Source: Raillietiella orientalis (lineage: Eukaryota). From it: 64,000 nt of DNA. Where the stretch lies: assembly GCA_036172245.1 (NCBI GenBank), contig JAYWIR010000051.1, positions 186,001 to 250,000 of the forward strand, read 5' to 3'. A model generated the notes under the pieces. It did not search any database. It was not told the DNA's origin and worked only from the letters and a program-made list of their open reading frames with translations. Both the position numbers and the translations under genes were made by a program. Below, one piece after another: positions 31,401 to 58,509 of this stretch; the stretch's first letter is position 1; each line of letters opens with the position of its first letter.

Positions 31401-32893
31401 AAAAAAAATAAGGAAACTCAGTTAGTGTAAAAAAAATTTTCTTCAAAAACATTCAAACTATTTCTACAAAACTATTGTAAAACTCTTCCAACTGGGTCTG
31501 ATTCTGCACGCCAGTTAGGTGAGAGTTCACGGCCGATGTCTCTGTAGCTCAAAGCTCCCGAAAGTTATGTAGCTTATGAAGTTTCCGGCTCACTTTGCAT
31601 CCAATTAAATTCACGACATTGGTAAATGCCTCAGAAACAGTCAAACGAACTATCAAATCCAAGCAGGGCTATTCGATCATTACAGTGAGCGTTTCAGAAT
31701 CGAAAATACAGGTCTCATATGAAACATTTATCAAGTTGAAATGGAGAGATTATAAGGTGGTGTCTTTTTTTTTATCAATCGGATCTGAAAACACTCCGTT
31801 TTATGCAATTGTAATTCTCGTGTTCAGCGCAAACATTAGATTATTTCGTTTCCATTTGTAGAAAATACTGTGCTGATTCTACCTCACTTATTTATTGTAC
31901 TTTTTTTCATTTTACACATTCTAAAAACCTTGGTTCCATAAGATTAAGGCACATAAGATTGGCAAACATTTATTCATCAATGGAATCGTTATTAAGGAAA
32001 CTGAATTCTGCTATGTTTTATGTGATGACAACTAATTTAAAAACCCAGAGACATCCACGATTTAGACAGACACAATTGCCTTCAGAGAAAAATTTTACTA
32101 CAATGAAAAGAAGCTTCGATGTTGAAGTGGTGGAGATTCTTGTATTCATATTGCTCTTCACATAGTACTAATAATAATCTTTGAATGATTCTTAGGAATT
32201 ATTATTATATTGACAAGAAATCAATACTTTGCAAAGATTACTTTGAATAGCTGATAGTGAATTTATATAATTTGTAGGGATTCAAGTATTTCCAAATAGA
32301 ATCATATGTCATGTTCACAAGGTAAGCTGCACGAGGTTGTAAAGACTAGGAACGGTTTTAAAATTACTAAGTTGACAATGAAGGTGCCGAAACAAATCAA
32401 AACCTACAAATATTCAAAAAAAGGAAAAAAAAGCGTAGTAAGAAGGTGAACACCAATAATCAATAAGAGAAGTAATAAAAATATTTTGAATTTTTATTAT
32501 TTTGATCCGTTTTCTAAAGAGTAGTCTACATGGAATCACATTTAGAACGTGTTACATATGGACTTCCTAAAAAAACACACATATTTTTTTTTCCGTTGGT
32601 ATCCCTTGTGCTGTGCTTCGAATTGTTGCATATGACGAACTCTTCAAGGTGTCAGTGTATGAACTTTGCAGGAATGTGGTAGATTCCTTTTCAATAATCG
32701 TGTGTGAGAGTCTTTGTATTTGCAAACATGAATCCGTTTATGTGTTTAGCTCCAGAATTTCGCTCATCCTGAAGATTTATTTGAGTTATCGAGTAAGCGT
32801 TTAATAGGTACAGGCTAAACGTATTTTGTTTTTTCTATCGTTGAATAGCATAGAATAATAATGTGCGAGTAAGAACATTTAGCGTTTCAATAT

Positions 32894-33948
32894 ATGAGAG
32901 TTACACTGACACTATGTTACATGTTTATCATTCTGAAGATTTGTGATGAATCACAACATGCAAGCAAACTGGGTAAGTGAAGTTTTACGTTGTTGCTGAA
33001 GTGGTTGAGTACTTTTTGTGTAGGTGGCAGATACTTTTTGTTTCGGAACTCGGTAAAGCCTGAATAAGAGTATGCAATATTAGACATATGTAAAAAAAAC
33101 TCATACGCAATGCCCATAATTGTATCCAATAAATACAAACACTTGTTATGAGTTTTCAGTTGTTAACTCTTACTAATTTTAGCACATGAAGGAGATCGCT
33201 CCCATTCTTCACATTCAGTGAATGCAGAAACTACATCGAAAAGTGTGAAACCTGAAGAAGAAAATAAAACTCTCCTATTTTCACCAGTAAGTCTGTTGAT
33301 AAAGATCCATTATGAATAGATTGTAATCTAACGATTGTATTAGTTGGGACAATTGCGTAAAAATATAACAAGCAATTCTCATACATTATCTTAATTTTTT
33401 TGCAGGCTATATCATCTGTATGTAAAACCAATGTAAATTGTTCTGACCTCCCAGCTGATTGCCTGCAGTGTGAATGGAATAGCAGCTGTGTATATGGAGA
33501 ACCATTAAATGTCACTTGTCAACCCTTACCAGAAGTTGAGTGCATTGGAAACTATTCACATCAGCGTTGGATGCTATGTCGATACTGTTATCAAACAGAT
33601 CTTTGGGAGCATGTGTGTCAGGGCAAAGCAGATTGCCATTCTGCAATGTCACCTCGTCAGTATTACCGAGCTAATTGTAGTGTGTTAGCACATATTGTGT
33701 GCATGGGGAATCGAGTCTTTTTCAAGAAGTTACCATGCAATTGGACTAATGGATATAGCTATTGGAAAGCTTTATTGCTGAGTATAGTTGCAGGAGGATT
33801 TGGGGCTGATAGGTTTTATCTGGGATATTGGCAAGAAGGTGTAGGGAAGCTTTTCAGTTTTGGTGGGCTGGGTTTGTGGACATTATTGGATATTTTACTT
33901 ATTGCTCTTCAGTACTTGAAACCAGCTGATGGTTCATTATATATTTAG
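32894..33948 (+). CDS. amx: TM2 domain-containing protein 3 / almondex, 241 aa; exons 32894-32972, 33183-33286, 33406-33948
   Basis: Signal-peptide-like MRVTLTLCYMFIILKIC. Cys-rich ectodomain (CSDLPADCLQC..CVYGEP..CRYCYQT..YYRANC) and TM2 domain CNWTNGYSYWKALLLSIVAGGFGADRFYLGYWQEGVGKLFSFGGLGLWTLLD..PADGSLYI*. GT-AG introns with consistent phases (79+104+543 nt). First two exons are less certain than the last. Confidence 0.93.
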
Positions 33949-36900
33949 CCATTCTAATGATGAGTTGTTTAGGTTCAAGCATTAGCATCAGAAGTGCAAT
34001 AATACTTGTTATTTGACTTTTATCAGGAACGATAGAATCAAAATTCTGAAGTTGAGAGGTGCAAGTAGAAAATTCGTAGTAGTATTTACTAAATAGCTGA
34101 TTGGAGAGTTACAGTGTGAAAACTAATTTTGGGATCTAGCAACATCATTTTGAGACCAGCGAAAGAGTAGGGAAGATTATGTCAAGTATATGAATTCTAT
34201 AGTTTAGAAGTGTTAGGACTTGCCAGAATATGAATAATATTAATCTGAAACTGTGTAGTTCATGCCAAACATGAAATGCAAATTTCAGAACTGTGTTGTG
34301 CCTAACTGTTTGTTATTCATTTTATGCAAGCAGCTAATGTGCTAACATATATATATATTTACAATAAAATGCCAAAATTTCCCTTATCCAGCATTAGAGA
34401 TGATATATAAATGCAAATGGAATTTCAGGTAGAGCATCCCCTAATTGTCAAAGAATCCTTTTATTGAGGACTGGTTTATTTTATATAACATGAATTAGCA
34501 AGTCCAAAATTGCTTTGTATGTGCACTTCAAATATTCACACAGGTCTCACAAATAACTAATGTTTAATTCATTGGTAGCAAAACAACAACAAAAAAACAG
34601 CAGTGTAGAACAGAGAGAGCATTTTGATATCAAAGTGGAAATAAAATGAGTCTTTTTATGGTGTATTAAGTTGGAATTTTTGAAATCAAGGGCTTTTCGT
34701 TTCAGACAGCCATTCCATTCCATCAGGAGATTATAAGGTGCATACAAATGAAACCTATAAGTCTGGATACAACATAATTGGTTTTTGAGAAATCCATGCC
34801 TTGACCAAAAACGTTTCATTTCAAGAAAGCAAGATGCAATGTGTCATTATAAGTTGTGAGGTGCCATAACATGTGTGCGCTTTTTCTTGTACAGGTTTAC
34901 TTGTTTAGTATTTCTGCTTCTGCCTGCCAATTGCCTCAGGAACAAACTTCGTTTCGCAGTTTTGTCCTTTTGCTCCCTTGGCTATGTTCATCTAGGTATA
35001 TTTGTTTGTAACAGGTTTGCAGGACCAATTCCAATTGACATTAAGTTGCTGGTTGTCAATCACCTTAATTGTATACTTGTGCAGCAGCAGAATTGAATTC
35101 CTCTAACATTTTAGGGTTTTCAACCAAATTGCTCTGATAATCACTGTTGAAAAGTTGAAAAATCCACATTCTTGAACAGCATGTGTCCACTAATTAGAGA
35201 ATTAACTTTCTCATAAGCTTTGGCAGTTTCTGCATCCCCGACTCCAGCTGAATGCACATGTGAAAGTCAATTTCCTAATGAGTGCGCGGCGAATCGTTCT
35301 CTCCAATCTAAATGTCGAAAAAGTAAATTGTCAGAACAGTCATCCGAAAAAGGATAACCGGAGCAACAGCCGGAATAATAATGCGGTTCCAACGAGCAGG
35401 ATTTTATGAGTCTTCGATTCTGGTTCCACGCCGACACATCATTACACTGAAAAGTTTAGGAAATTTCCTGTGCACCAATCAAATCCACCCCAGTTAGGAG
35501 CGTTCCCATGCCGGTCAAACAGTGCACCCCCACTCTTCGGCCAGTTTACGAAGAAAAGGTTCTGAAACCATCTGGTTGGCTGTTGGCGTGAAATTTCGGT
35601 CACATAAAGAAAAGTGACGCATAATTCTTTCGCCTTAAAGAAAATTTTGGCCCTGAGAATCCTGCACATGTGCTTTAATCATGATTCTGTACTCTGATCT
35701 CTTCTGCTTCCCGTTTTGCCCTATCTGGAAGCCTACTTGAAAAGCGATGAAGGGCGATAAGTCATGAGATCTATATCCGATAAAATACCAGGTTGATACG
35801 TACATGGTGCTCAGGGGCAGAAGATGGTTTCGACCAAGATCTCGAAAACTGCATGCAGACGCAAGCACTCCGACATCGCCCGTCGGATACGTGATAAATC
35901 GCGGACTTTCCATCACTACAGTTCTGCAGGTGGTCCATGTGGAAGAGCCTCAAGTTGAAAGCCTTCCTTCGAATGTTCGGTTCTAGCGGGTGGCAGAAAA
36001 ATGCCGCTTCCTTCGGACCGTTTTTGTTGTACGGTCAGGCGTTCATTGCGGGTTGGGTGCATTTGATAGTATGTCTCACTTGCAAACATCCTCAAGATCG
36101 CGCGCAGAAGGTCCCCCAACCGCCCAAAAACATGAGTACGGATAAGAGACGGTTGCTGGGGAACGTATTTCCACGACAAAAACAAAGGCCTAACTGGTGG
36201 AGGGATAGTTCCGGAAGACGAAGCTTCGGGTTCGCCACTGAGTGTCTGAAAGCACGAAGCAAAGGTTGTGGCGGACGCATAAATCATCTCCGCCACTCGG
36301 AGAGGAACACACTCGACTTGAGGCACCTCACCGGCGCGATGAAGGGAGGCGCGCCTGGGCGCCTGTCCGGTCCTTCTCCGCGAGGCAGTTATTGGATGGT
36401 TCTCGCTGTGATTTGAAAGGTGCTTTTCCGAGTTCGAATGATGAGTGTTCCCTCCGTTTGCTTTTGCCTGAAATTAAAATGCAGATGGTGATTTATAGTA
36501 GATGATAAAGAACGTACCCGGAGCCCGCACGTCTAGTGGCATTCCTCTAATAGCTTTCGGGGAGCCGTTCCCATTGCTCACTGGAAAGAAGTTGGTCCCC
36601 ATTGTGCTTGGGCTGCAGTCTCTTTTAAGGAGATCGGTAGCAGAATGCAGTTTTTGCTTAAATTTCTGTCCATCCCGTTTTTTCCGCGAAAGCAAAAGCA
36701 CTGAAGGATAAAGGAGGATGTTTTTAAAAATTCCGTTTAATCCCCGAAGTACAGTAGCACCTTGGACATACCAAGTTGAAAGCGAGACGGTGATTGGGAA
36801 GGAAGCCCCACCAGCCTACGCATTAAAGAGTTTCGATCAGCATTCAAGGAGAGTAACTGTATTTTTATATTCGTTCTTTTCCGTAGAGAGAATGCAAAAC

Positions 36901-41031: not shown

Positions 41032-44000
41032 ATGCCGCTGCGACCGCGCGCCCAGACGGGAGCGCTCCCTTTCCCGGATGCTCTCCTTCTCCTCCTCCTC
41101 CTGCCCCTTCTCGGCGCCGCCGCCTCCGAAGACAACCACCCGGAAGCTCAGTGGCTGTTGGAATTCAAGGGACAACTGGTCCGCTCGCTGCTGGCGGGGA
41201 CCGTGCAGAGGGAACGCGGTAAGTTGCCTCGAGGCGAGGGTCCCCTCCACTGGCTTCCCGATCCCCACGGCGTTTTTCCCCATTTCCGGTTCCGTCGAAG
41301 AGGCTTCCGGGAGAAGACTCGTCGTAGCCGCACCCGGGGGAGGCGCCTCTATCGATCTGCGTCCCCCGGGGATCAACGAGCCGGACGCCCTCACCCTCTT
41401 CTCCTACCGGGGGCGCCCCTTCGCCTTCGCAGCAGGAAGCCGGTCGGCCGCCGTGTTCCCCGTCGACCCGCTGTCTCCCGGGGCGGCGTCCCCCGCCCTG
41501 GCAGTACTGGAGCTGCAGGACCGTGTCAGCGGTCTCGCGGTAGGTGCGGTGGGAGCCCCTCCTTCCGACTCTCGTCCTTCCTTCTCTCCTTCCAGGCCCA
41601 GTCCCACGGGGACCAGGTGTTCCTGGTGGTCGGATACAAGGACCTCGGCGGATCCCGCGTCTTCACTTGTTCCCCGGGGAGGGGGTGGACCGTCCGCTTC
41701 CGGCACTGGCTGTCGCACGGGAGCAGGAGCCCGTCGGGCTACCGGTTCTTCCAGGAAGGTCGCCGGCTGCTCCTGGTGGTGACCTACCGGTCCGACGCGC
41801 TACGGGGGAGCGAAGGAGGAGCGGCGGCTGCCCCAGGAACTGAGGTGCTCGAGTGGAACGGCGAACACTTTGATTTACAGGTCACCCTGCCGACCTTCCC
41901 TTCCACGTCGAGCGTGGTCTTCAGGGACGGCGGTGGATCGACCCTGGCGGTGGGCGTCGCCCAACACGAAGGCGAAGGTGGGAACCCTCAGGTCAGTAGG
42001 CCCTTGAAGGCTCAGGGAGCGCACTCCTCCGGGGCCACGGGGAGGAGGCAGGATGGGAGGCCCCTCTTGGGGGCGCCGGCGTGCCCGGAAGAGCGGGTGG
42101 ATGAGCCTGTGCTTGAGCCGGGTTTCAGGGCGCCTTCTTGGGGCCACTCCCGCTCCGAGACCTCCCTACCCCGGAGGAGACCCCAGGAAGGAGCGGTAGG
42201 GAGGCTCCCTGCCTGCTGTCCGCGTCTTCCACTCCAGGTGGGCTCGAGGATCTTCCTCCTGGATGAGACCTCGGTCGGCCTCGGCGCCGCGCGACTGCTC
42301 CAGCAGCTTCCCTCCGACGGCGCCCTGCAGATGGAGACGTTCGTCCACAGGAACCACCGTTTCCTGCTGATCGCTAACCGGAACAGCTCTGCTGCCATAT
42401 TCTGGTGGGGAGGTGAGCGGTGGCGGATGGGGGGGGGGGGGGAGGGTCGGACGGAATAGGCGTTCTCCCCTTCCGCAGGCGCCCGGTTCGTCCCCTGGCA
42501 GACGATCCCGGCGCCTCGGGAAGGCTCGGGAAGGAACGGCGGGAAAACCGGGAGCTCCAGGATGGGAAGGCTGTGGACATCCCGACGATTCGAAGGGGAG
42601 CTCCTCCTGGTCTCGGCCGACGAGGTGAATGGTGGAGAGGGGGGAGAAGTGGAGGAGCATCTGGACCGCGGTCCCCCTCCCTTTTAGGAGCGGCTCGCGT
42701 TCCACCTCATGAACGAGGACGGCCGCTTCGCCGAGGTGGACGAGGAGCCGCTGCCGCCACTGCGCGGCACTGCAGGCAGCAACGTCGTTCTGGTGGACTT
42801 GGTGGACTCGGAAGACGGGCAGCTGTTCGTCTTCGTCTGCAAGAGGAGCGCCATCGCCTACCGGGAGCTCGCCTGCAGGCTCCATCCAGTGTCCTTCTCG
42901 GCGACCGAAGGGGCCGCCTCCCCGGCAGGTAACGCGGGAGGAAGGGTGGTGGAGGCTGACCCGCCGACCTCTCCTCCCTCACCGCAGGGCGCGAAGGCGG
43001 CGGCGAGAGCTGTCTGGAGAGCCTGTCGCGGGAGGCGGAGGCTCGCCTTCGCGACCTCGAATCACTGGATGCCCTGTCGCGCAGACTGTTGCTGACCTCC
43101 GGAGAGACCCAGGAGATAGAAGGCGCCCTTTTCGTCCACGGGGACGTCTCGATGGAGGGGACCCTATCTGCTGGTTCGATCCGGTTCGACCTCGAGGACG
43201 ACCCCCGCGCCCCGAGGTCGCTGAGCGGGAAGCTGTCCAAGCTAGAACACGCGATCGCCCGCCTGAGGCGGGAATTCGGCGACCTCCTGCGCGTCTCGCT
43301 TCCGGACCAGGTCGTCCACGGGACGCTGGTGTTCCGAGAGGTCCTCTCGGCGGAAGTCTTGCGCGTGGACACCATCCGCAACGATGTGCTGGTCAACGGG
43401 GAATCGCTGCTGTGGCCCTCTTCCTCCAAGGGATGGCGCTCCATGGAAGTGGGGAACCTGACCATCTCTGGGACCATCAACGGAATCTTCCCGGATGGTA
43501 GGCGGGACTATTAGCAGCCTCTTCGGGCGGTTTTTCCCCGAAGCGCTGGAATCAGATATCATGGACATTAACGGCGGAGGGTGGACAGTCACGGGACTGC
43601 ACAGCTACGCGGATGTCACGGTCCTCGATGGCGTGGAGATCTCTCCGGGAGCTCCCGTCAATGACTTCTACTGGGGGGACGTCGTACGAACGAACGTCCC
43701 TCACCAGGAGGTCTCCGGAACGAAGATCTTTCCGGGAGCTTGCGTGCTCGGCGACGTAATGGTTTTCGAGACCGTGAACGGGGTATGGGACGTGTCCCTG
43801 CCTTGCACCTTTCTCTCCTCCCTTCCTCTTCTTCCTCTTCTCTTCCTCCTCTTCCTATTCCTTTCCCAGCCACCTCGCCTTCAGGGGAGCCACCACTGAA
43901 TTTATTTCAGGTGCATCTGCAAGAGTGGGCCAAGTCGGTGGTCAGGCTAGACGCTGACCAGGAATTGCTCGGAAACTACGTCTTCGAAGGGGACGTGGAC

Positions 44001-47000
44001 GTCCTCGGTGACGTCGAGGTGTACGTCCTCAACGGCGTGCCTCTGGACGGTTTCCTCGATTCTCTGATCCATAGGGAAGATGGTTTTCTAGGAGGTGAGT
44101 GATCAGCGGCGGCTACGAGGGGGTGGAGTCGGAATGGGGGTGGGTCCGACCGCACCTCCGGAGCCCTCTTCAGGCACTCTGGTGTTCGCGGCTCCCGTCG
44201 AGGTCTCTGGAGACCTGACCATCGGCGGTCTTGCCAACGGAGCGAAGCTCTGGGACGACTTTCTTGTCCCATCTCGGGACCAGGAGGTGCTCGCGAGCTT
44301 CTCATTCTCCCGCGTGGTGGTGCTGGGAGCCCTGCTCTGTGACAACCTAAACGGCCTGAGCTTCAGCAAGGACGTCGTGAGTCTCCATGGAGACAACGTC
44401 ATTTCCGGTGAGCGTGAGGGAGGAAGGGTAGGAGGAGGGTTCGCCGGAAACTTCTTCATCCACAGGAGACGTCGTATTCGCAGCTCCCATCACCGTGGGC
44501 TCCAGCCAACCCACCGTGATCTACGAGGACCGCGTCTTCGAGGAGGACGTGTTTTTCAGCGGCTCCGTACACGTGCAAGAAGTCAACGGTTACGACCTGA
44601 CCAACCTCACTCACACCTACTGGATGAAGTCGGAACCCCAGGTACTTGCCGAGAGGCGAAAGGAAGAAATGGTGGCAGAAGCTCGCACCGCGTGGGACTC
44701 TTCCGGCCTGACGGCTTCCTCCTTCCTTAGGTGGTCTACGCCAACGAGGTAGTAGTGGCACCTCTGGGCAGCGCAGTCTTCGAGGGCGACCTGGTGGCTC
44801 ACAGCATCGGCGGACGGCCGTTCGAGGACTTCATAACCCTGGACAACGATGTGATCATCACGGGAGAGCTGTCTTTCGAGGGTGGCGTTGAGGTCGCGGC
44901 GACCGCACCCGTGACCGTCGGCGAAGGCGAGCTGGTGGACGGGGTGGACCTCTCGGAGCTTTACCGCGGCGCCTATCTCTTGCACGAGAGGCAGCCCGTC
45001 CAAGGGTCGAAGAGGTTCCTGGGTCCGGTGCGCGTCTTTAGGGACGTCATAGTGGACGGGCGCGTGAACGGCGTCGAGCTGCGCGGCTCTGTCACAAGGC
45101 TGGACGGAGACGTCGAGGTGACAGGTGCGGGTGCACTGGCGGGACGCGGCCTACCTTCTTCCTTGGGCGTTGGCAGGTTCCAAGAGGTTCTCCAGCTGTA
45201 CCCTGGACGAGGACCTGCTCGTCACGGGAGACTTCTCGGTGCAGAGACTGGGCGGCGTCGACTTCGACGAGCTCGTGCGGAAGATGGTCTTCGTGGACGA
45301 GGCGACCGTCGTGCGCGGGAGAGTTAGGCTGGAGCACTTTGACGGTGAGGATAGTCGCACGGCGTTTGACGGAGGCAGAGGCGGCGGCGACAAAGCAAGA
45401 AGAGGAGAAGAGGGCGGGGGGAGGCACGCGCAATTAGCTCATTTCACCCATTTGTTTTGTATTCTTTTATTTTTCAGCCAACGTCGTCCACGCGAGAGAG
45501 ATCAGTGACCTTCCCTTCAGGTCCCGCTACCACCTCCTGTCCGGCCTTTCCAGCACGTACCATACGCTGGTGGTGCAAGGAGACGCGGTCTTCGGAGATT
45601 CTCTCCGGGTCTCCGGAACCGTCAACGGCTATCAGCTCGAGAAGTTTGCGGACAGGGTGAGCAGTGCGCCCCTACACGAGGACCGAAGGAAGAACGGATC
45701 CTGGGAGGGTCCACTTTCCTTCCGGGAACAGAAGGGGTGCAGGACCCTTCCGTCTTCTTTTCCTCTTCTCTTCCTCTCCCTTCCTTCTACTTCTCTTCCT
45801 CCTCCTCACTTCCTCCTCCTCCTTTCGTTTCCCCACGTTTGCTCTACTTCCCCAGCCAAGGGCTGGGAACCGCTAAGCCACGGACGGTACTGCAAAGAGT
45901 CTCCCTGCACCTGCACAAGGAACCTCCGATCGCAACCCCGAACTGGCCGGACCTCTTCGACCTTGCCTCAGGAAGGAGGGAGGTCAAAGTAGCAGACCAT
46001 GCAGAGTGTCGTAGTCCGGCCGAAGGGCGAGACGGTCCCCTGGCTTGGGGCACGCGTGCCGGAAGCTCAGTGAAGCCCAGGAGGGGAGTGGGAAGGAGGA
46101 GGGAGAGGATAGAGTTTCTGCAGCAGCGCCACCGCTGTGCAGGACGACGGCTCCTTGGAAACCTCCAGAGCCGTCTCCAGGAGAGCACACACTGCCAACT
46201 TGCACTTACCTAACCCGCCCCTCCGTGATCTTCAGGCTTCTTAACCCCACGGAAGGGATCTGAGCATGGCCCATTCGTCTCCCTCTTCTCAGGTGATCAA
46301 GAGCAACGAGGTGACTTTCGTGACCGGACAGAAGCTCTTCGAAGGGCCCGTGCACGTGCTGGGTGACCTCCGTACCGACCTGGTGAACGACGTCGACCTG
46401 GAGGCCCTCCTGGACCGCATCCTGCTGAACTCCAGACCGCAGGTGCTAACGGTCCCCCTCACGGTCAGCGGAGGGGTCATTATAGGTGCGTGAATGAGCC
46501 TGAAAGGCTCAACTCGGTCCTGGGCTTCCCTTCCGCTTCCCGACAGACTCGCTGCATGTCCATGGCAGCTTCGGAAGGCTCCCTGCAGACGATCTGCTGT
46601 TCGATGACGGAAGCACCTCGCTGGACGGGATCGCTCTCTCGGGAGACGTGACCTTCGATGGCGCATCAGTTTCCTTGGAGTCGGACGTGATCAACGGCTG
46701 CAACCTCTCGCAGGTGGGAATCCCACTCTCCGCCACTACCCCTCCGGCACCTTCCTCTTCAGATCTGGCAGTCTCTGGTGCGGGCCTCCCCCTTCGACCT
46801 TGTCTCGGAGGCGTTTATACCGCAGCGAGCAAGGTCGCTGAAGGTTGCCGGCGACGTCCGCTTCTTTCGAGGTATTCAGGGCGTCGACATCGACCGCATG
46901 CTGTCGCATGTCATAACCCGCTCCGGTGGGCAGACCATTAGGTCACCAGTCAGCATGCCCGATGGGTTCTCCGCCCGCCGCGCGCAGATCGACGTTCTCA

Positions 47001-49847
47001 ACGAAAAGCCCTTGGATCTTGTGTTCGCGAGCGCTCTGCTCACCGAGGGAGATCAGGTGGGTCACCACGGAGGCATGAGCTCACTCCACCCTCGGGCCAT
47101 CTTGACGGTGGTGGTGGTCACCTTCGAGCAAATATCCTCACTCCCTTTCCTTCCCTTCAGGTTGCTGGGGGGCACTTCCTCTTCGCCGACGGGCTGTTGG
47201 CCCAAAGGGTACAGGTCGGAGGTCATGTGCTGTCGTCCTCCCCGGTCTCCGTCAACGACGTGTTCCTGTCCGCGTTCGCGAACCACGTGGTCCCTGCAAC
47301 GGGGGAGGTTCCCAAGGACATCTCCGGAGACAAGCTCTTCTCTGGCGGGATTCAAGCGGATGACCTCTTCGTTATCGCCTCCTTCAACGGGATGGACCCT
47401 GACAGCCTTGTAGTGACCTCCCGCAACGTCCTCCTAGACGAAAAGGCCACTTTCGACGCCGACGTGATCTTCTCCGGCGACCTGTTCGTTTACGGAGAGG
47501 TCGACGGGGTGGACCTGAAGAGCTTGCTGAGAGACAGAGTCACCTTGTCCACAGATCAGAAGCTTTACGGAGGGGTCAACGCCTCCGGGACAATGGTCTT
47601 GCAGGGTGCGTAGAGGAAGGATCAGGGGAATCAGACTCCCGTTTCCATGGTGTTTTTCCCCCCTTTGACATCATTTCCTCCTTCTCTCTTCCCCGCCTTG
47701 ATCTCTGCAAGCACCCGTGTCCTGGAGTCACGGGTACAGCCGTCGGTCGCCTGCCGCCTCGCTCCCTTCCCTCCCTCCTCCCAGGACTAGGTTTCCGATA
47801 GTGCGAGGAGGAGACGCTAGCTCCTCAGGTGAAGGGAGGATGGAGAAGGAGAAGGGAACGAGGGAGCAGGGGTCCAGGTGAGAAGGATGACCTTTCTTCT
47901 CCATCCACCCCCAGACCTGGAAGTCGACGCCATCAACGGCATCCCGTGGGACACCGTGGTGACGCGGAGGGGTGATGCTCGCATCCTCTCCGGGAAGACG
48001 TTCCGGAGCGTCTCCGTGGACACCGACATGAGGGCGGACCTCCTTAATGACGTGGACCTTGTCCACCTGGCGGAGAGCTCCGTGAGGCTGGACGAACCGA
48101 GAGAATTCGAGAGCTGCGTGGTGAGAGGACCTCGAGGGGCGGTGGGCAGGGGGAGGGCGCAATCATGTCTCCTTCTCGAGGCGCGGCGGCACGTTCTTTC
48201 CCCTCTGGGGTCTTGGACCTGAGGGTAAGCTGTCGCAACGCGCCCCGATGGAAGGAGGCCGTTTCCATGCCCTCCCCCTCCTGGGAAGGAGACCAACCGT
48301 TGGTCGCCCGCTGATGCATCGGCTGGTGCACTCGCGCGCCCGCAGGTCTTCACTGACGAGGTGAGCACAGCGCAGCCCGTGGTTGCCACCGAGAGTGTCA
48401 ACGGCGTCTCCTCGAGCGACCTGGAGGCAAGGGAGCTGCGGTGGCATCGGCTACGTGCCCACGTGGACACAGAGATCGCTAGAATGGATGCGGTGGAGGA
48501 GATGTACGTGGACAGTCACGCGAGAATGCACGGTGAGCTCCAACCCGTTCCGTTGTGGACGGACTCCTTCCCTCGCCACCACCACCAGGCGGCTCTCGCG
48601 GGAAGCTGCGGTACTTTGAGGACTTTGGTCAGATGCCCCTGAGGGATGTTGTTGCGTTCCGCTCCGGCCGCGAGAGGGAGGCGGCACCACTGGTGGCGAC
48701 GCAGTCCCTGCCGTGCCTCGAGGGCAGGCGTTGGTGCCGCTGCTTGCGCACTGTGCCGCTCGGACTCGGCGGCGGCGACGGCGGCGGGAAGTGGGGGGTC
48801 TTCCTGCAGAGACAGAAGGAGGAGGAGGTGGACGCGAGCGGGTAGGTGATCGCACCTCGAGAGCTTTTCCCGACCCCTCCGACTTCCCCAGCCGGTGTGC
48901 GGATGGTCCCCTGGGGCGCCTCTTCCCGCTCCCGGGCGTCCGGCTGCTGAGGAAGGTGGTGCCCGGGGACGTCGAGGTACTGATTGAGTGGAGCGGCTTG
49001 GAAGGCATCGTGGTGAAACGGAGACTCCACGGCGCCGCCGCGTGGACCTTCGTCCAGCATATCCCGGCGGCCTCCTCGGCAGCGACCCACGTGGAGACCG
49101 TCGCCGTCGCCGGGAAAGACGCAGCGGAGGGACAACAGCCGTTCCTGGTCGTCGTCAACGGCTACGACCCACGGGATGAACCAGCGACCTCCCTTTCCGT
49201 CGTGTACGGATGGAACCCCATCTCCAGGCAGGTGCGTGGATGCCACCCTTCCTCCCGTCCCGGCTCACCTCCTCCCCGCCCTTCCGGCGACAGTTCGAAG
49301 TGCTGCAGGCTTTCGAGACGGACGGACCCCTGGCGCTGACCGCCTTCTCCTTCGAGGGAGATGCTGGCTTCGTAGTGTCGCAGAAGCCGAGGACGGTTCC
49401 ACCGCCTCCCACGCGGGAGGAGCAGGAAGGCCCGCTCAGAGGCTCCCTTCTCCTACCCGCCCGGGCCTCCGCGGGATCCCTGCTCGTGTATCGCCTGAGA
49501 CCAGACCACCGCAGCTTCGATCGCGTCCAGGAGATCCAGGAGCGAGGTGTAGTGATGGCAACCACCTTCTCCTTCAGAGGTGAGCGAGGGACTCGGCCCC
49601 AGAGGAGAAGAAATCCCCTCGTGACCACCCGACCCCTTCGAAAGGTGGATTCTTTCTGTGCACCGCGTCGTCCAGCGAGCATCGCGTGGCGGTGTTCCAA
49701 TGGAAGGCGGCCCAGGGTTTCGACCGCTTCCAGGACGTCTTCGTGGAATCCGCGCGGGCCGTGGGAGCGGTGGTCCGCCCTCCCGAGGCGTACCTCGTCG
49801 CCTCCGACGGGCACTCCGTTAGAGCGTTCCGATCCGTCGTCTTCTGA
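41032..49847 (+). CDS. Large secreted repeat protein, about 2013 aa, 24 exons; probable Closca/Polehole (fs(1)M3)/Nasrat-family eggshell protein
   Basis: Exons 41032-41218, 41301-41539, 41596-41991, 42238-42412, 42479-42624, 42688-42928, 42988-43497, 43544-43782, 43911-44094, 44174-44407, 44466-44641, 44731-45124, 45177-45344, 45478-45656, 46293-46485, 46547-46713, 46763-47056, 47161-47605, 47915-48120, 48346-48532, 48589-48841, 48892-49231, 49294-49579 and 49645-49847 join in frame via GT-AG introns (6042 nt). Signal peptide (LLLLLLLPLLGAAA), EAR/EPTP-like blades at both ends (e.g. QQLPSDGALQMETFVHRNHRFLLIAN..SAAIFWWGG), and central repeats GxKxF..V.V.GD....VNGVDL. Gene model is well supported; family name is recalled, not searched. 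Confidence 0.85.
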
Positions 49848-50471: not shown

Positions 50472-53400
50472 CTACGACCTCTCGAAGAAGCGGAACCTCA
50501 GCGGCGTCTTGGGGACGATGAGGAACTGGTGGACGGTGTCCATGGTGCCCTCGTAGGCGACTCGGAAGTGGAGAAGTACCTGGAAGCACCGGAAGGGCGG
50601 CGCTGCGGGTTAGCCCCGCAGGGTGAAGAAAAGGAGAAGACGCGGGGAGACTGTCATCACCTTGACCAGAGCCACGGCGATCTCCTGCTCAGCAATCCTC
50701 CTACCCACGCACATGCGGGGTCCCCAGCCGAAAGGTAGCACCAGAAACGGATTGGCCGGCTCCCGGGTCCACCGCTCCGGCACGAATCGCAGAGCGTCTT
50801 TAAAGTTGACCTCGGTCCTGGAGGCTACGTAGGTGTGGCAGCATATGGGAATCTGGAACAGGCGGAGAGGGCGTGGAACGGACTCCCTTCTGGGGTAAGA
50901 GAAGGAAAGCTCCGTTCCCAGAATCGGGAAACACGGAAGCAGAAGGAGCTTCAGAGTCTCTCCGAAGGCGCAGGGAGGGGGGGGGGGGAGGTTTTCGGCA
51001 GCGGAATGCCCCGGCGATTCTTCCTCCTCCCTCTTCCCATCTCCTCCACTGCTCACCTTTCCACTGAGCAAGGACGCGTCTCCCGGGGAGAAAGGAAGCA
51101 GAGGAGGAATTCCGAGGTCCCGGAAATCCGACCTCCCTGATTCCGTACCCCCGGGCGCCTGCAGGCCCTGGAAACGCAGGTGCGCTGGAGGGAGGAGATG
51201 GACAGCTGGACAAGGAAGGGAGAGAAAGGACGCGGCGATGATCTTCCAGGAAGGAAAAAACAGGGAGTGAAGCCACGGTGAAGGGGAGAGGGGGGTTTCG
51301 GACTGGAGAACATTTACCTTCGCGGGAATGCGGTAGTTCTGAATGACGACGTCCTCGGATAGCACCCGCACGATATTCGGGATGGTCGGCATCAACCTGG
51401 AACGCACCCTCCGGTAGTTGCGGAGGAGACTCTACAGTCTGGGACAGTGGGAACGGAGGGCGGGTGGGGGGGCTGGGAAGGGTCTGGGACCCCGTCGCAA
51501 GGTAGCGCGTCCTCCAGAGGGTCTGGGCGGCGAAGGGGATCGCCAGACTTTGCGTTCCCTGTTCACCCTCCTACCCTGAAGTCTCCCGAGACCGGAAGCT
51601 GCGGAGAAACGGGCGTTGCCCCTTCCCGCGCTCCCTCCCCGTGCCTCCGTTATTCCCGGAGGGACTCGGAAAAGCGAACCGTCGTCCCTTCCCAGGAATG
51701 AGAGCGATCCCCGCAGGGCGTGGTCTTCAGCAGGCAAGGTCAGGGGCGCGCCGGAAGAGTGCCTGTGCCAAGGGCAGCGCGGAAGGGGGTCAACCCTTTG
51801 CTCGCGAGGGGGAGGAAGGGTCGAGAGGAGGGGGAGAAAACCTGAAGGTCTCCTTGATGCAGTGCTTCAGGTAGGTGGCGGCGTTGAGGATGTCCACGTC
51901 GACCTGGTCCTGCGGCCCCATCATCGCCCGGATCTCTGCGTAGGCCTTCTCCTGGCACTCCTGGTTCTTCGCCAGCTGGTACAGCGTGAAGAGGATGGTG
52001 TTGGCGGTCTAAAGGAGACGTCTAAGGGAGTCCTGCTCATTCCCGTTTCCTCCTCCTCCTCTCCGCCCGCAATATCTCCACCACCTCTTCCGGTAGCTCG
52101 ACGAATGGTGACAGTGGCGCCACCTGAAGCCGAGGAGGAATTTTCCCTCCGAGCGCCAACCACAGGTCTCTGGTAGCTTCACCGTTCCTGGCTCTAGACC
52201 GAGCGCGTCTCTTGGAAGACTCTCCTGAGGTCTTTCGGCTTCCATTATGGAGGGCTCGGACGCCCAACCCTCTCTCAGTACCGGTGCTGGAAATCCCTCC
52301 CTTCCTTTCGGATCATGCAGCGTGCTTCGGATCCGGGACTCGTCCCTTGTTCCTCCAATCAAGGGAGAAAGGCAGGATGGACCCTCGTCCAAAGAGATAG
52401 GTTGATCCTCTGCCTCACAATGTCCCGCGCATCCCACGCTCTCTCCGTAACGAAGGTGTCCTCCGTCTTGCTCTACCGCCTGCAATCTCACTTCCTCGAG
52501 CTCCGCGGAGCTCATGCAACTACCGTTAGAGGACGCGGCCCTCAAAACAGGTGGAGAGACTGCTCAGCCACAGCAAGCGTCTCTTGCTTTGGATGGGCTG
52601 CGCAGTCCGTTCTTCGCAGGCCCTCCGAGAAGGCTGGAGCCGCACCTGACTGAGACCAGGTGGGAAGATCTTTGACATGGTCTTCTCGGAGCCGCGTGGC
52701 TTCCATCTCCGTCGCTTTTGTTCCTTCACGCTTGCTCTCCAGATCTGAGAGTCGCCTTCGTGCGTCTCCGATAGCTCCAGCCTTGAAGTTTTCGTCAGAC
52801 TGATGGACACCTGAAGCTTTGCAGGGTCAAGAAAAAAGGGCGATCCTGCGGCTTTTTCGTTCGCATCTCCAGGGAAGGACGCACCACTCCTTCCCCTCTC
52901 GTGGGGTAAGCGTCGACAAAGTGGCGCTTCTGGTAGAGCAAGCGAAAACGACAAATCCGTTCTCTAGTGATGGATGACGCTCCTGGTGAGTCTTGCACGG
53001 AAGAATGAGGCTGAAGAATCAGCTCGAGGAAGAAGAGCAGCAGCTGCAGCTGCAGACGCCAGGATGGAAGAAAAAGGAGCAATGGAAGGAAAGAAAGAAG
53101 GAAAGATATCCCGAGGAAATTTTTCTTTACTTTTTGCATTGCCGGAGAGAGAAAGAAAGAGAATTACGACGTTGTAGGATCCAAGACGTTTGCGGCGCCC
53201 AAAGTCATGCATGCGTTCTCCTGGGACGGAGAGACGCAAAGATGAGCTGGGAGATAAGCGGCAAACAACCATGCGGAGGGTGCATCCGGGCACTGCGTGG
53301 GGGGCAATGTACGCGTTGTTGTCTATATCTCTGATCTGAGTGAGCGGCAGGGCTACGAGATGCTGCCACTCAACGAAAGGATTCGCTTGTGTGGCATCCG

Positions 53401-56400
53401 TCCATTTTCGTTCCGGAGTGCTTCCCGGACCGATGACTCCAAAAACTTCCCCAGCTGCGTGCCACCTATTCATAGCTCACGTTCTCACTTTCTCTTACCG
53501 GCATTCCATTGTTGCTGAGGGCCTGTTCTGTTCATAATTCACGTTCTCACTTTCCCCCTCCCGCATCCGATTGTTGTCCAACACCTGCTCTATTCATAGC
53601 TCACGTTCTCACTCTCCCCGCATTCCATTGTTGCTCAGCACCTGTTCGATTCATAGCTCACGTTCCCACCTTCCCTAGCCCCCGCGTCCAATTGTTGCAG
53701 ACTGTCCCAGCGCATTAGGCTCCACTTGGAAAGTTGTTCGCCCTTCCGGGACAGCTTGCAGCAGTGTCAAGGCTGCTCCGATACGCCTTGGCCTCAACGC
53801 GTGCCACGAAGAGAACGCCGTGCGCAGCGGTCGCGTGTGCCTTGTTGGGCCGCGATTCGTGCCGCAAGTTTTCGCCGGACACTGCAAATTCCGATGCTCC
53901 CTCCTCGGAAGGCCGCCAGCCGAAGCTGCGCCACTTTTGCAGCTGCCGATGACTTTTTTTTTTTTTTTACCTCTGTCTAGGTCAGCCTTCAGAGCATGAT
54001 TTAAGCTCACGTTGCTCGCTGCGGCGTCTTTGGATGCACATGTGGAATTCCAAAGGTGCGCTGGGAGGTGGTCAGCGGAGGTTCCTCTTCCTTCTCTCCC
54101 CATTCTTTGCTTCCCCCTCCTACCGCAGAGCTGTCGCCTTTGTTGCAGCAGTGGCGCTTCGAGAGGGCCCATCCCGCTCGGTTTCCTCTCCCTCCGCGTC
54201 CCAAAGAGGGACGTCCCAGTTGCACTGCAACACAAGAGAATGTCTGGCGCGGGGTCAGCAGCTCGGAGTGCTGTGGGATTTTCCCTGAGAGAGGGAAGCA
54301 GACAACTCGAGGATAAGTTGGACAGGAAGGCGATGGGTTCCTGGACTGCCCTTTCATTCAGAGTCTGGACTGCTCTTTCGTGCATCCGTCCGCTCTCGAT
54401 CGGTCTGCTGGTAGTGAAAGAGCAAGTGAATGCAAGAGGGGACGCTCGGGAGGAACAATAGCTCTCAGAAAAAGAGAAGATACAGGTCGTTCTTTTTCGG
54501 CAGATCGCTGTCTGCTTCACCTGGCGGGAAGAGCTGCCCTTGGAGCTCTTCCCGCACTGTCTGTTCCTTTTTTCTTGTGTGTGTCTTTTTTTTTCTTTTC
54601 AGGGATCCAACTTGTGCTGCTCTCTATTTGTTGCTCTCCTCTCCCTCTTTCCCTTCCGTTCGCACTCCCTCTCGCTTCTGCCGTCTTCGTCTTGGCCCGT
54701 GACAGCGTGTACGTGGTTATCAAGCCCCGAGGCGCACTCACACGGTTGCCTTACGTTGTCGATCCCCGCGGCGATGAAGTCAATCATCGTTGTGCGGATA
54801 TCTCGGGGGTCCAGGTCGGGGGTGCTGATCAACGCCTTCAGGATGCTGATCTCGCGCTCTTGGGGATTAAGGCTGAAGTTTCCTTCCCGGCTCATCAGAG
54901 CCACCGACTCCTCGATGTACCGGTTGCATACGCTGCAAGGAAGGGCGGAAGAAGTAAGCTCACTCGGTTCCCTGGTACGGAACACGGGGGGCAGGAAGCA
55001 GTGGAGTGGGAGTGGAGAGGAAGAGTAGGGAAGAAACGGAACCAATGAAGAATGGCCCCCAGACATGGCTATCCTGCAAGGCGGAAGGAAAGGAAGGGAG
55101 ATGAAAGATGGATGGGGAAGGAATTTCCTCGATGAGGCAGAGCCGCTTCAAGGAGGGAGGGAGGGAGGGTAGAGGGGTACTCACTCGTAGATATAGGTCT
55201 CGTTTCTGGCGAACTTTCTGTAGGCCTCCGTGGTGAGGTACTTCCAGAGAGGGAAGCCGAAGTAGAGCTTCTGGTAGTACTTCCACATCTGGTGCACGGC
55301 TTCAATGAGATTGAGGGCTTCCGGAAGTGTCGGAGACAGAAGGCATCCCATGCGGCGGTCCAGACACACTAGGCAGATAGCTGGAAGGAGAGAGATGGCT
55401 GGGGTAGGGACCGGGGTCCCACAGGAGCGCCCTCACACTCCAAAGCCATGCAGAAGACGAGTTCCTGCAGGCGGCTCACGCCGCCGCTGTCCATGCCGGT
55501 CAGCAGTAGGCGGATGAAGTCGTCGCAGATGGCATTCTGCTCGCGCAGGTACTGCTCCACGTTTGCCGGCTTCATGAGGATGGGGGTCAGCTTTTTGCGC
55601 AGCTCGTTCCACTCTGACTGCTGCCTGTGGGCAGGGAGGAACCGGAGGAAGAAGGGGGAGTTTCTCCTGGCGCAGGCGCGGAGTCCGACCTTGCTAGGAA
55701 GGGAAGGGAACGGGGAACACCTTCGCCCGGCGGCCGCGCACCAGACGGAGTGCAGGAGGTCAGGGAGAAGAAGGGAACGCCGCGAACAGATGTGTTGCGA
55801 TCCTCCAACTCCTTATCTCCCACAGCGGCGGCGGTGGAAGAGAAGGAGGAGATGTGGATTTGTGGGAGCGACAACGAAAGCCGTTGCTCCAGTGGGGAGA
55901 CAGCCTCCATAAGGAAGGTTAGCTGAAACGAGGAGGAGGCTGTAAAGAGGGGCGAAAAAGACGGAGTAGAAGATTTTCCCGGGTCGCCATCGATGGCGAC
56001 GTCCGGCTGACGGAAGAGGCGTTCCTTTCTGCCCATCCAGGAACGACAGCCGGGAACCACCAGGAAGTTGCAAATGGACGCCTTTCCCTCTCTCGCCTTC
56101 CCTCCTCCTCTTCTGGCGCGCAAGAGTCCGCGATCGACGAGGCTGGGCGCCACCGCTCCGCGCGCTGCCAAGTGCCGGCGGGGGATCGAACCGGTCCGCC
56201 ATCTCAAGGTCACGTTCAGGAAACAGACCAGGAGCGCGATGGCACTACGTCCGGGTCACTGGACTACCCTCGGGGACTAGTGGTTGGTGGCAGTCCCGCT
56301 GCACAGCAGACCTGCCGGAACGTGCCTTGGCACCACCTCGGGGCCTTGCAGGAGAGCCGCAGGGCTGTCCTTCAGTGCTCTGGCTCGGGTGCCCCTGAAA

Positions 56401-58509
56401 GGCGCACCAGACCCAGGGGGATATATGGATGGATGCCCCTCCTTAGCGGGCGCCGCCTCGAAGACGGAGGAAGGAAGGAAGGAACAGAAAGGGCTGGGAA
56501 GCCGTTGCCGGTGGGCGAGGTCTCTGGCGTCGGGAGGGTCAGATGGTAGCTGCCGAAGAGGAGGCAGCGGAGAAGAGAAGGACACCACCCCTCCTTAACC
56601 CTCCATCGGCATGTGACCCTTCCCTCCCCTCCACTCCCCCACTTCCCTTCCCGAGGTCCCTCGAATGGCGGTGCCCCGCGCCAGCGATACGTACGAGTTC
56701 ACCAGCCCGACGCTCTTGTATCTGTCCGGCAGGCTCTGGCGGTACGTCTTCACCGCCTCGTTGATTGGCCTCTCCGGGAAGCGCCCCTGGCTGCGCAGGA
56801 CCTGCTCGATGTCGCTGCCGTCGTAAACGTGGACGAGGGGCGTCCGGCCGAAGTACTCCTTGACGACCCGCCCGTAGCGGAGGAACTTGTCTGCAGCGGG
56901 AGCGCGTCTGAGTGCAGCGGCGAGAGAGCGGAACGGGCGCGCGAAGAGAGGAGGAAGCTCCGAAGCGGCGCGGAAGCAGGGACCGAGACCAGGAGGAAGA
57001 GGGAAGCGCAGCAATGGGCCCAGGGGGGAAAGCCTGACGAAGGAAGGGCCCGCTGTCCGCTGCCACCCCGCCTCTCGACTCTCGCCTCTCCTCCTCGGAA
57101 GGGAAGGAAGGGTAATGCCCCTCCCCCGGGAAGGAGTCCTCCCTTTTTTTTCTTCGTTCGGAACCCGGGCAGGACCGCTCCCCCGTCCCGGGACCAGCAG
57201 CAGCAGCTGCGGCGGTGACCCGTGCATGGGGGAGGAAGAACGAGAAAAGCACACCGAGCGCTGTCCGAGATCTTTGGGGCGGAGGGGACGCGGGCCACCC
57301 CCCTTCGCCGAGTGGGAGAGAAGCATGTTGTTGATGGTCCCGCAGGCACGCACACGCAGGTAGGTAAGGAAGAGGTAAGGGAGGGAGGATCGTGCTACCC
57401 CACCCGCGTTCTCCAGCCGCCCTGGGCCCACTCGAGAGCACAGAAGGAAGAGGGGGTCGGCGCATGGGCTCGAGAAAGGTCAGCGGCCACCTTCGTAAGA
57501 GTCGTGCATCCTGTCCGTCCGGTACCTCCCTCCAGGGTAGTACAGCCAGGAGGTTCCGATGAGCGGGAGGGAAGGCTTCGGTCCAGGGATGAGGCTGAAA
57601 TCGCAGATCTTCCTTTCTGAAAAGAGAAGGCAGGAATTACAGCGTTGCAGGGTCGCCTCCTTCCTGTCCGGGAAACGTCCGTCTCCTCACGCCTCCCCTC
57701 AGGCGCGTGCCATCCGAGGGAGGGCAGGCGCGCGCGCCCCCGGCCCCGCAAGGGGAGGGACGCGTCCCTCGTCTCCCGGAGACGCCCCTCCGCTCCCCCT
57801 CATCATCCGTCGGACAGGGAGCCAACGGGAGGGGGGCGAAGGGAGGAATGTTCCCACCCGCAGGTGGAGGGGGAGAGGCGACGGCAACCCCTGAGGCGGA
57901 CCCCACCCCGCCCCAAACTCACCCCTCTCTGGAGCGCACGTGATCGTCGCGCGGGCCATAAAAACAAATCAAAGGGGGAACGCGCGCGCCGGCGGCGCGA
58001 CCTGACAACAACCTGAGGGTCCGTCCCGCAGGCAAAGGACGGACGTCCCTCGGACGGCGCCATCCGGCAGCGGCGCAAGGAGCCGACACCGGTGAGAAGC
58101 GCCGCCGCAGTCGAAGGGAAGAACCAGACGGGCACGGCGGCTGAGAGGTGTGCGAGAAGGGGAGGGGGAGAGGGGGGAATCCGGGGGAATTTCCTCCCTT
58201 TCGCCCTTTGCCCCGCGAGGCGTTCCGTCGCGCTCAGTCCCCCGAGACCGGCGTTACGCTCTTCGCCCCCCCCCAGCCCCTCTTCCCTCCCCCCCCCTTC
58301 CTTCTGCGACCTTTGCGGAGACAGGGGGGAGGAGGACTCGGGAGAAAAGCCAATGGGAAAAGACGGACTCACTCACCTCCTCTGAAGAGGCGCCCCCCGT
58401 CGGCCACCGCGGGGGAGTGCGGCCGCCGCAGCGCCCCCTCCCAGGCGGCGGCGGGCCGAGGCTCGCCGACGCCGCGGCTCATCGAAACGTGACGGAGCCG
58501 CCGCAGCAT
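50472..58509 (-). CDS. Mitochondrial-clan cytochrome P450, 520 aa, 10 exons; closest in motifs to CYP314A1 (shade, ecdysone 20-monooxygenase)
   Basis: Exons 58509-58377, 57616-57491, 56890-56695, 55624-55437, 55380-55185, 54932-54755, 52008-51842, 51396-51318, 50852-50661 and 50579-50472 (1563 nt, phases consistent). Arg-rich presequence-like MLRRLRHVSMSR, IPGP hinge, WxxxR (WNELR), I-helix DFIAAGIDNT, ExxR (ETFR), PERW and heme motif PFGWGPRMCVG. Shade-like segments: YRQSLPDRYKSVGLVN, LWKYLTTEAYRKFARNETYIYD, FLIVPKTPL. First exon and exact orthology less certain. Confidence 0.9.
53467..53700. repeat. Minisatellite, 4 copies of an about 60-bp unit, in P450 intron 6
   Basis: Units start at about 53467, 53529, 53591 and 53648 with core TTCATAGCTCACGTTCTCACT...GCATTCCATTGTTG. 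Confidence 0.85.

Follow-up and report, generated by a model that had tools for sequence, protein, structure and literature searches.

The window, a 64,000-nucleotide stretch of the Raillietiella orientalis genome, contains at positions 41032..49847 (+) a gene whose product is reasonably likely to be one chain of a three-chain, double-headed rod secreted into the egg envelope, probably of the same family as the Drosophila proteins Nasrat, Polehole, and Closca. The predicted chain combines two beta-propeller heads with a long repetitive shaft, and the genome encodes at least two more proteins of this layout.

The gene is confirmed as real, and it encodes a very long secreted protein. It comprises 24 exons in a single frame with no internal stops, separated by 23 GT–AG introns: introns 1–6 at 41219-41300, 41540-41595, 41992-42237, 42413-42478, 42625-42687, and 42929-42987; introns 7–12 at 43498-43555, 43783-43910, 44095-44173, 44408-44465, 44642-44730, and 45125-45176; introns 13–18 at 45345-45477, 45657-46292, 46486-46546, 46714-46762, 47057-47160, and 47606-47914; introns 19–23 at 48121-48345, 48533-48588, 48842-48891, 49232-49293, and 49580-49644 (all on the plus strand). 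The gene, of animal type, is rich in GC, and its introns are short (GC3 0.80 vs. GC 0.62 in the introns). The single 24-exon reading frame suggested in the earlier note stands with one acceptor moved: splicing leaves the frame open, and intronless copies elsewhere in the genome jointly cross 20 of the 23 junctions (18, 19, and 22 are uncovered), with weak support, 18–19 of 30 matching bases, at junctions 3 and 4. The copies place the intron 7 acceptor 12 nt further downstream, at 43555, hence the protein length of 2,009 aa. A profile-guided gene finder misses intron 1 and predicts 22 introns, all identical to those of the manual model and including junctions 18, 19, and 22, although this agreement is only partly independent, because its splice matrices were trained on the same introns. 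AlphaFold2 modeling of exon 3, intron 3, and exon 4 together, with no alignment, yields pLDDT 39.9 and was set aside.

The intronless copies appear in a DNA search of the genome as many exon-only matches to the gene on other contigs. Eighteen of the 25 fetched stretches align to the spliced sequence at 71–87% identity, and 16 of these 18 cross at least one junction; the 18 loci lie on contigs C1, C4, C5, C7, C9, C11, C14, C15, C16, C21, C30, C39, C42, C45, C46, and C67. Their interpretation as dispersed paralogs was rejected, as they are decayed intronless fragments with frameshifting indels in 16 of 21 aligned pieces. The fragments are mostly internal, about 0.1–2.4 kb long, with no 3′-end anchoring; in 17 of the 18, the 60 nt downstream contain no stretch of 10 A. 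The copy at C46:1368915-1369659 lacks intron 7 and retains intron 8, and seems to derive from partly spliced pre-mRNA. The long fragments at C5:2310089-2312343 and C9:5106025-5108143 have a common 3′ end and 95% identical flanks, and are one insertion, duplicated afterwards; the fragment at C16:3325254-3326312 is split by an insertion of about 650 bp right after junction 5. One of the paralogs described below, on contig C19, likewise has a large number of retrocopies (we count more than 20 loci, with 39 of 74 candidates scored), and the one copy examined crosses five junctions; a candidate fourth gene at C17:3.596 Mb was rejected as a retro-fragment of this same paralog. Heritable retrocopies require mRNA in the germline or early embryo, and the copies therefore show that the mRNAs of both genes were once present in cells that pass on their DNA. 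Neither strong expression nor ovary specificity follows from this, because the neighboring P450 gene, taken as a control, also has two retrocopy loci. The retro-fragments can also be used as fossil cDNA for annotating genes of this genome.

The encoded protein starts with a leader and a first head (about 400 aa); next come two heptad-like helices and the shaft, which covers about 1,100 aa, and a third helix then precedes the second head (about 360 aa; all features below are on the plus strand). The signal peptide that had been suspected (approximately aa 1–31, 41032..41124) is borne out by an N-terminal hydropathy peak (19-residue windows starting at 9–14, up to 1.97), its cleavage site being placed by eye; the full-length named homologs likewise start with a hydrophobic leader. 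A weaker peak is seen at 806–807 within the shaft, and none at the C-terminus. The 2,009-aa product thus appears to be a large secreted protein with no membrane anchor, a trait of Nasrat, Polehole, and Closca, which in the fly are approximately 1,800–2,100 aa long. Helical linkers are found at the three places given in the earlier note, their heptad register being judged by eye only: linker 1 (aa 471–498, 43014..43097), heptad-like, is read from the sequence; linker 2 (aa 540–562, 43221..43289), also heptad-like, additionally shows weak alignment to a helix of the family profile; and linker 3 (aa 1613–1641, 48421..48507), between the shaft and the C-terminal head, agrees with the model of an ant homolog.

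Both heads are supported as EAR-type beta-propellers by profile matches and by the model of the ant homolog, in line with the EAR-like blades originally proposed for both ends. The N-terminal head spans exons 2–6 (approximately aa 63–455, 41301..42928), and the C-terminal head spans exons 21–24 (approximately aa 1650–2009, 48589..49844). Pfam EPTP stays below the cut-off in exons 4 and 23 taken singly (E 0.005) and is above it in 11 of 15 homologs scanned. The family N-head profile matches aa 226–344 (E 1e-17), the C-head profile matches aa 1814–1996 (E 1.7e-16), and each cross-matches the opposite end of the protein, while none of 20 shuffles gave a domain above 5 bits. The family profile matches LGI1 with both ends (E 2.6e-18). 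For the ant homolog, AlphaFold2 was run on the C-terminal 588 aa (mean pLDDT 56); the model has a 42-residue helix and an all-beta head, and the fold that matches this head best is the LGI1 EPTP propeller (E 1.3e-11). For either head, LGI1, a secreted EAR beta-propeller, ranks first in both sequence and fold comparisons; however, LGI1 and TSPEAR have one propeller each plus LRR or laminin-G domains, whereas here two propellers are split by an 1,100-aa repeat shaft.

The shaft (exons 7–20, approximately aa 500–1620, 43101..48444) consists of 21 clear and about five degenerate units of approximately 41 aa, with a consensus like Q-x-I-x-G-x-K-x-F … V-N-G-V-D-L, in keeping with the earlier estimate of roughly 20–25 degenerate repeats over about 1,100 aa. 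In a held-out test, 19 of the 21 units beat all 50 shuffles. The anchors for this test were selected visually, and a BLASTP self-comparison of the shaft gives no off-diagonal match; stronger proof of the repeat is therefore that its profile retrieves a true relative: the profile of 17 window units gives one match among 8,000 candidates scored, the protein P0004 (E 4.8e-21).

A search with the P0004 shaft yields 25 proteins among 7,995 candidates scored, and the family members come from Rhopilema, Sanderia, Hydra, Priapulus, two spiders, Ixodes, Macrobrachium, a damselfly, and an ant, plus unnamed records; all named matches are annotated as “uncharacterized.” The best match to the window protein is a Macrobrachium protein, collinear with it over aa 194–1701 (24.7%, E 6e-86), and a 26-sequence family profile built without the window sequence matches the window protein with E 4e-171. 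By these profile comparisons, it is shown to belong to an uncharacterized family that reaches from jellyfish to insects. Searches with single exons yield less: exon 18 gives no match among 1,073 candidates, and the three matches of exon 7 against 1.84 billion representatives were rejected as unrelated repeat or coiled-coil proteins. The Atlas search with exon 18 gives leads below 0.9 only, and that with P0004 gives EPTP-bearing eukaryote clusters at 0.92, with a low recognition score. The Sanderia protein P0011 has extra N-terminal TSP1 and SUEL lectin domains, which could reflect either genuine acquisition of domains or a fusion in the gene model. In the accessible literature, we found no study of the family that deals with structure or with cnidarians, and the locus ids of five members are absent from the main texts searched; most subscription journals lie outside both searches.

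Several observations suggest that the shaft is a trimeric fiber, as had been proposed. In PDB, the repeat profile built from the window alone (E 0.013) and the family profile (E 1e-4 to 3e-3) both match residues 20–63 of the receptor-binding proteins (BppL) of the lactococcal phages Tuc2009 and TP901-1. In the neck of these proteins, three chains interlace at residues 40–63 into a beta-prism whose repeat is six residues long, as described in excerpts of PMC3893620. The likeness covers the G-x-K-x-F-x-G-D-V motif and the succession of a helix bundle and an interlaced prism. The phage protein, however, has one 24-residue prism in a homotrimer of 163–173-aa chains with a barrel head, while the window protein strings about 25 units in tandem and has EAR heads and a signal peptide, its gene being split by 23 introns. 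Three copies of residues 560–880 of the Macrobrachium homolog P0025 (corresponding to window aa ~570–859), folded with ESMFold2 and no alignment, score 0.47 vs. 0.00 for the best control, the runs agreeing in at least 79% of contacts at pLDDT of at least 60. In this prediction for a prawn homolog, the best contacts are made between chains, at offsets of 5–7 residues. Among microbial calibration cases, 21 of 30 homo-pairs and 0 of 23 single chains reach the mark used here; among eukaryotic ones, 17 of 29 and 0 of 30, respectively, do so. The present job, with its three copies, was unlike the calibration. Only one of seven eukaryotic pairs with no older solved relative reaches it, so the pass of P0025 may reflect memory of phage fibers. 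Taking the neck resemblance and the homolog model together, we consider a trimeric beta-helix the likely fold of the shaft.

A single-chain, bactofilin-like beta-solenoid, which would make the protein a monomeric dumbbell, is the least probable of the readings weighed here. Exon 18 does match Bactofilin weakly (E 0.073), with an Atlas lead at 0.84 covering 15% of members; however, the repeats of the ant homolog modeled as a monomer are unconfident (mostly pLDDT < 50, with a 16-row alignment), the closest solved motif is interlaced from three chains, and the P0025 model places its best contacts between chains. Similarly, we regard it as very improbable that the shaft was acquired from a phage tail-fiber gene, a proposal that concerns its origin and is compatible with the trimeric reading. 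Besides the PDB matches, it is favored by Pfam BppL_N, above the cut-off in 3 of 15 family members (P0007, P0013, P0025), with scores mostly summed over repeats. The similarity is nevertheless limited to one short motif and does not extend along the phage protein: none of 50,697 phage records matches a shaft at E 1e-3, PHROGs give one weak match in four proteins, and none of 221 pattern matches in prokaryote genomes is confirmed. With no phage or prokaryote protein in these searches matching the whole shaft, we see no case for transfer, and convergence or a very old motif explains the likeness equally well.

The trimeric beta-helix could be built from one chain type or from several, and the relevant evidence here is that the same genome contains two further full-length paralogs with the head–shaft–head layout, located by the profile-guided gene finder on contigs C17 (approximately 3,180,100–3,187,500) and C19 (approximately 982,400–992,600), with scores of 669 and 664, respectively, vs. 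56–110 on control stretches. The genome was probed with homologs and Pfam EPTP, and three genes (C51, that of the window; C17; C19) are a lower bound; the family profile has no match at loci on C56, C15, C10, C13, and C3. Three related genes per genome are also characteristic of Nasrat, Polehole, and Closca. No intron positions are common to the paralogs beyond chance (2, 0, and 1 matches). The shaft spans about 1,000–1,200 aa in the 11 full-length rows with a good repeat-profile score.

A 14-row tree (7 of the 21 rows of an earlier tree being omitted as partial or unnamed) places the window protein with Macrobrachium and Ixodes and next to Rhopilema P0010 and Hydra (support 90). It unites C19 with one spider and one Sanderia protein (support 98), and it sets C17 with Priapulus, the other spider, and the ant, which share their side of the tree with Rhopilema P0007 and Sanderia P0008 (support 97). 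The link of the window clade to P0010 and Hydra has support 83 in the 21-row tree and is missing from the heads-only tree, where only the C19 group is recovered with a cnidarian; the grouping of C19 with one spider and one jellyfish protein is common to the three trees. Constraints uniting the three paralogs or all nine bilaterian rows are rejected (p-AU 4e-5 and 0.0013, respectively). Branches in these trees are long, composition is uneven, and columns are rich in repeats; the groups were named after the earlier trees had been seen. On these trees, the three paralogs appear to belong to three distinct groups, each of them close to cnidarian members, and at least one duplication, probably both, would be older than the cnidarian–bilaterian split; the cnidarians may have four groups. 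The two paralogs and the three-group split are new here.

Three such old paralogs, like the reach of the family into cnidarians, went unnoticed in the earlier note; they favor a heterotrimer over a homo-oligomer, and we hold heterotrimer formation to be slightly better supported than its opposite. Alternatively, each paralog might form its own homotrimeric rod, the three rods assembling side by side or head to head, which we consider unlikely. The only complex folded, that of P0025, is indeed a homotrimer and passed, therefore a single chain type can occupy all three places in the model; moreover, the paralogs are only about 20–23% alike, and the repeats score poorly in C17 and C19 (9 well-scoring units each vs. 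21 in the window protein). Against separate homotrimers, three old lineages have been kept together with similar shaft lengths, and the fly trio is mutually dependent, if the family link holds. Sarcoglycans are membrane-anchored and far shorter than the window protein, and the family has no match to them in the Pfam or PDB searches. As a precedent for the heterotrimeric beta-helix proposed here, the beta, gamma, and delta sarcoglycans form an animal extracellular beta-helix from three different chains (PMC12750041, in the part available).

The family is very likely that of Drosophila Nasrat (fs(1)N), Polehole (fs(1)M3), and Closca, compared by description only, and the window gene itself probably belongs to a named family. 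The matches to exon 18, exon 7, the repeat profile, and the P0004 shaft include no sequence from fly, mosquito, or Nasonia. Published orthologues of the trio are XP_016843824, XP_008215462, and XP_016839710 in Nasonia and XP_001659577, XP_021707815, and XP_021708553 in Aedes. In the available portions of the sources, the three fly proteins are secreted by the oocyte and mutually required (PMC6303783) and are thought to be heterotrimeric (PMC10576393); an orthology table pairs the EAR-bearing TSPEAR with clos, with a low score of 3 (PMC10898740); in Nasonia, all three are expressed both in the oocyte and in nurse cells (PMC6777369); and shrimp transcripts annotated as polehole-like, nasrat, and EAR are ovary-biased (PMC7040003, PMC6131155, PMC4659196), strongly so for the polehole-like and EAR-annotated ones (PMC7040003, PMC4659196). 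The likeness is hence that of three related envelope proteins, secreted by the oocyte and needing one another, with clos paired to an EAR protein. The fly trio is further characterized by its place in the vitelline envelope and by its anchoring of Torso-like and Nudel. As far as the partial texts go, the literature on the trio gives no domain or fold, PMC3478583 adding nothing further on structure, and covers insects and shrimp, whereas the family described here extends to cnidarians and priapulids. “Closca” is not mentioned jointly with “EAR domain” or “TSPEAR” in the accessible literature, most subscription journals being outside it. Knock-down of the three orthologues in Nasonia is reported to disturb the embryos and leave the eggshells impermeable (PMC6777369), and aphids are reported to lack two of the trio (PMC3639227; both sources in part), which argues against simple transfer of function from the fly trio.

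An egg-envelope role is nonetheless fairly likely. The competing explanation, a general extracellular-matrix or surface fiber (cuticle, mesoglea, sensory structures) unrelated to the egg and to the Closca family, is quite unlikely. The occurrence of the family in jellyfish and Hydra and the TSP1 and SUEL lectin domains of one jellyfish member are consistent with it, and retrocopies are common in this genome. It is at odds with the ant and damselfly members, with the pairing of clos with an EAR protein and the ovary-biased shrimp transcripts labeled polehole-like and EAR (both known from partial texts), and with the paralog number of three, which equals that of the fly trio.

Under the preferred reading of a three-chain egg-envelope rod, the repeat regions of three chains, about 1,100 aa each, would wind into a segmented triple-stranded beta-helix; the helical linkers would set the chain register and clamp the rod as short helical bundles; and three EAR propellers would be displayed at each end. 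The rod might measure very roughly 60–90 nm, by our own estimate and with no computation. The partners would most likely be the C17 and C19 paralogs, one chain each, in a trio predating the cnidarian–bilaterian split. Secreted by the oocyte into the egg envelope, the rod would act as a two-ended strut or tether, its heads binding envelope or membrane proteins, in the same way as the LGI1 propeller binds ADAM22 according to the titles of solved structures. A heterotrimeric rod would explain the mutual need of Nasrat, Polehole, and Closca, presumed here to be its insect counterparts. More tentatively, and with somewhat less than an even chance, the rod may be an obligate heterotrimeric, double-headed triple-beta-helix kept since the cnidarian–bilaterian ancestor, an extracellular-matrix fiber class beside collagen and laminin that builds egg envelopes, with Nasrat, Polehole, and Closca as its fast-evolving insect chains and with EAR heads docking Torso-like and Nudel. 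Searches of the accessible literature, which excludes most subscription journals, did not turn up this architecture, the ancient trio, or the reasoning for a heterotrimer.

The fly trio connects eggshell building with embryo axis signaling, and the literature, in the parts available, gives neither a fold nor a reason for the mutual dependence. A heterotrimeric rod with binding heads, if true, supplies both; alleles that spare the shell but lose Torso signaling should then map to the heads, the origin of the family would move back to the cnidarian–bilaterian ancestor, and this would be the second animal beta-helix of three different chains, after the sarcoglycans. If only the gene model and the family hold, the result adds a single member to a family whose annotation is poor.

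Elsewhere in the window, a cytochrome P450 gene (Pfam p450; 50473-56900, minus strand) is convergent with the shaft-protein gene; its N-terminal motifs presumably recall ecdysone 20-hydroxylase CYP314A1/shade, and one of its copies, on C32, is intronless and in seven pieces. A GT10 fucosyltransferase gene is located at 18680-23835 (minus strand). A repeat in its intron near 19450-20000 has at least 39 dispersed copies (1,539 candidates), and the gene was rejected as a retrocopy control, being swamped by this repeat (40 of 1,539 candidates scored). Two AT-rich blocks occupy 6001-11000 and 30001-35000, with GC of 0.31–0.38 vs. 0.55–0.70 elsewhere.
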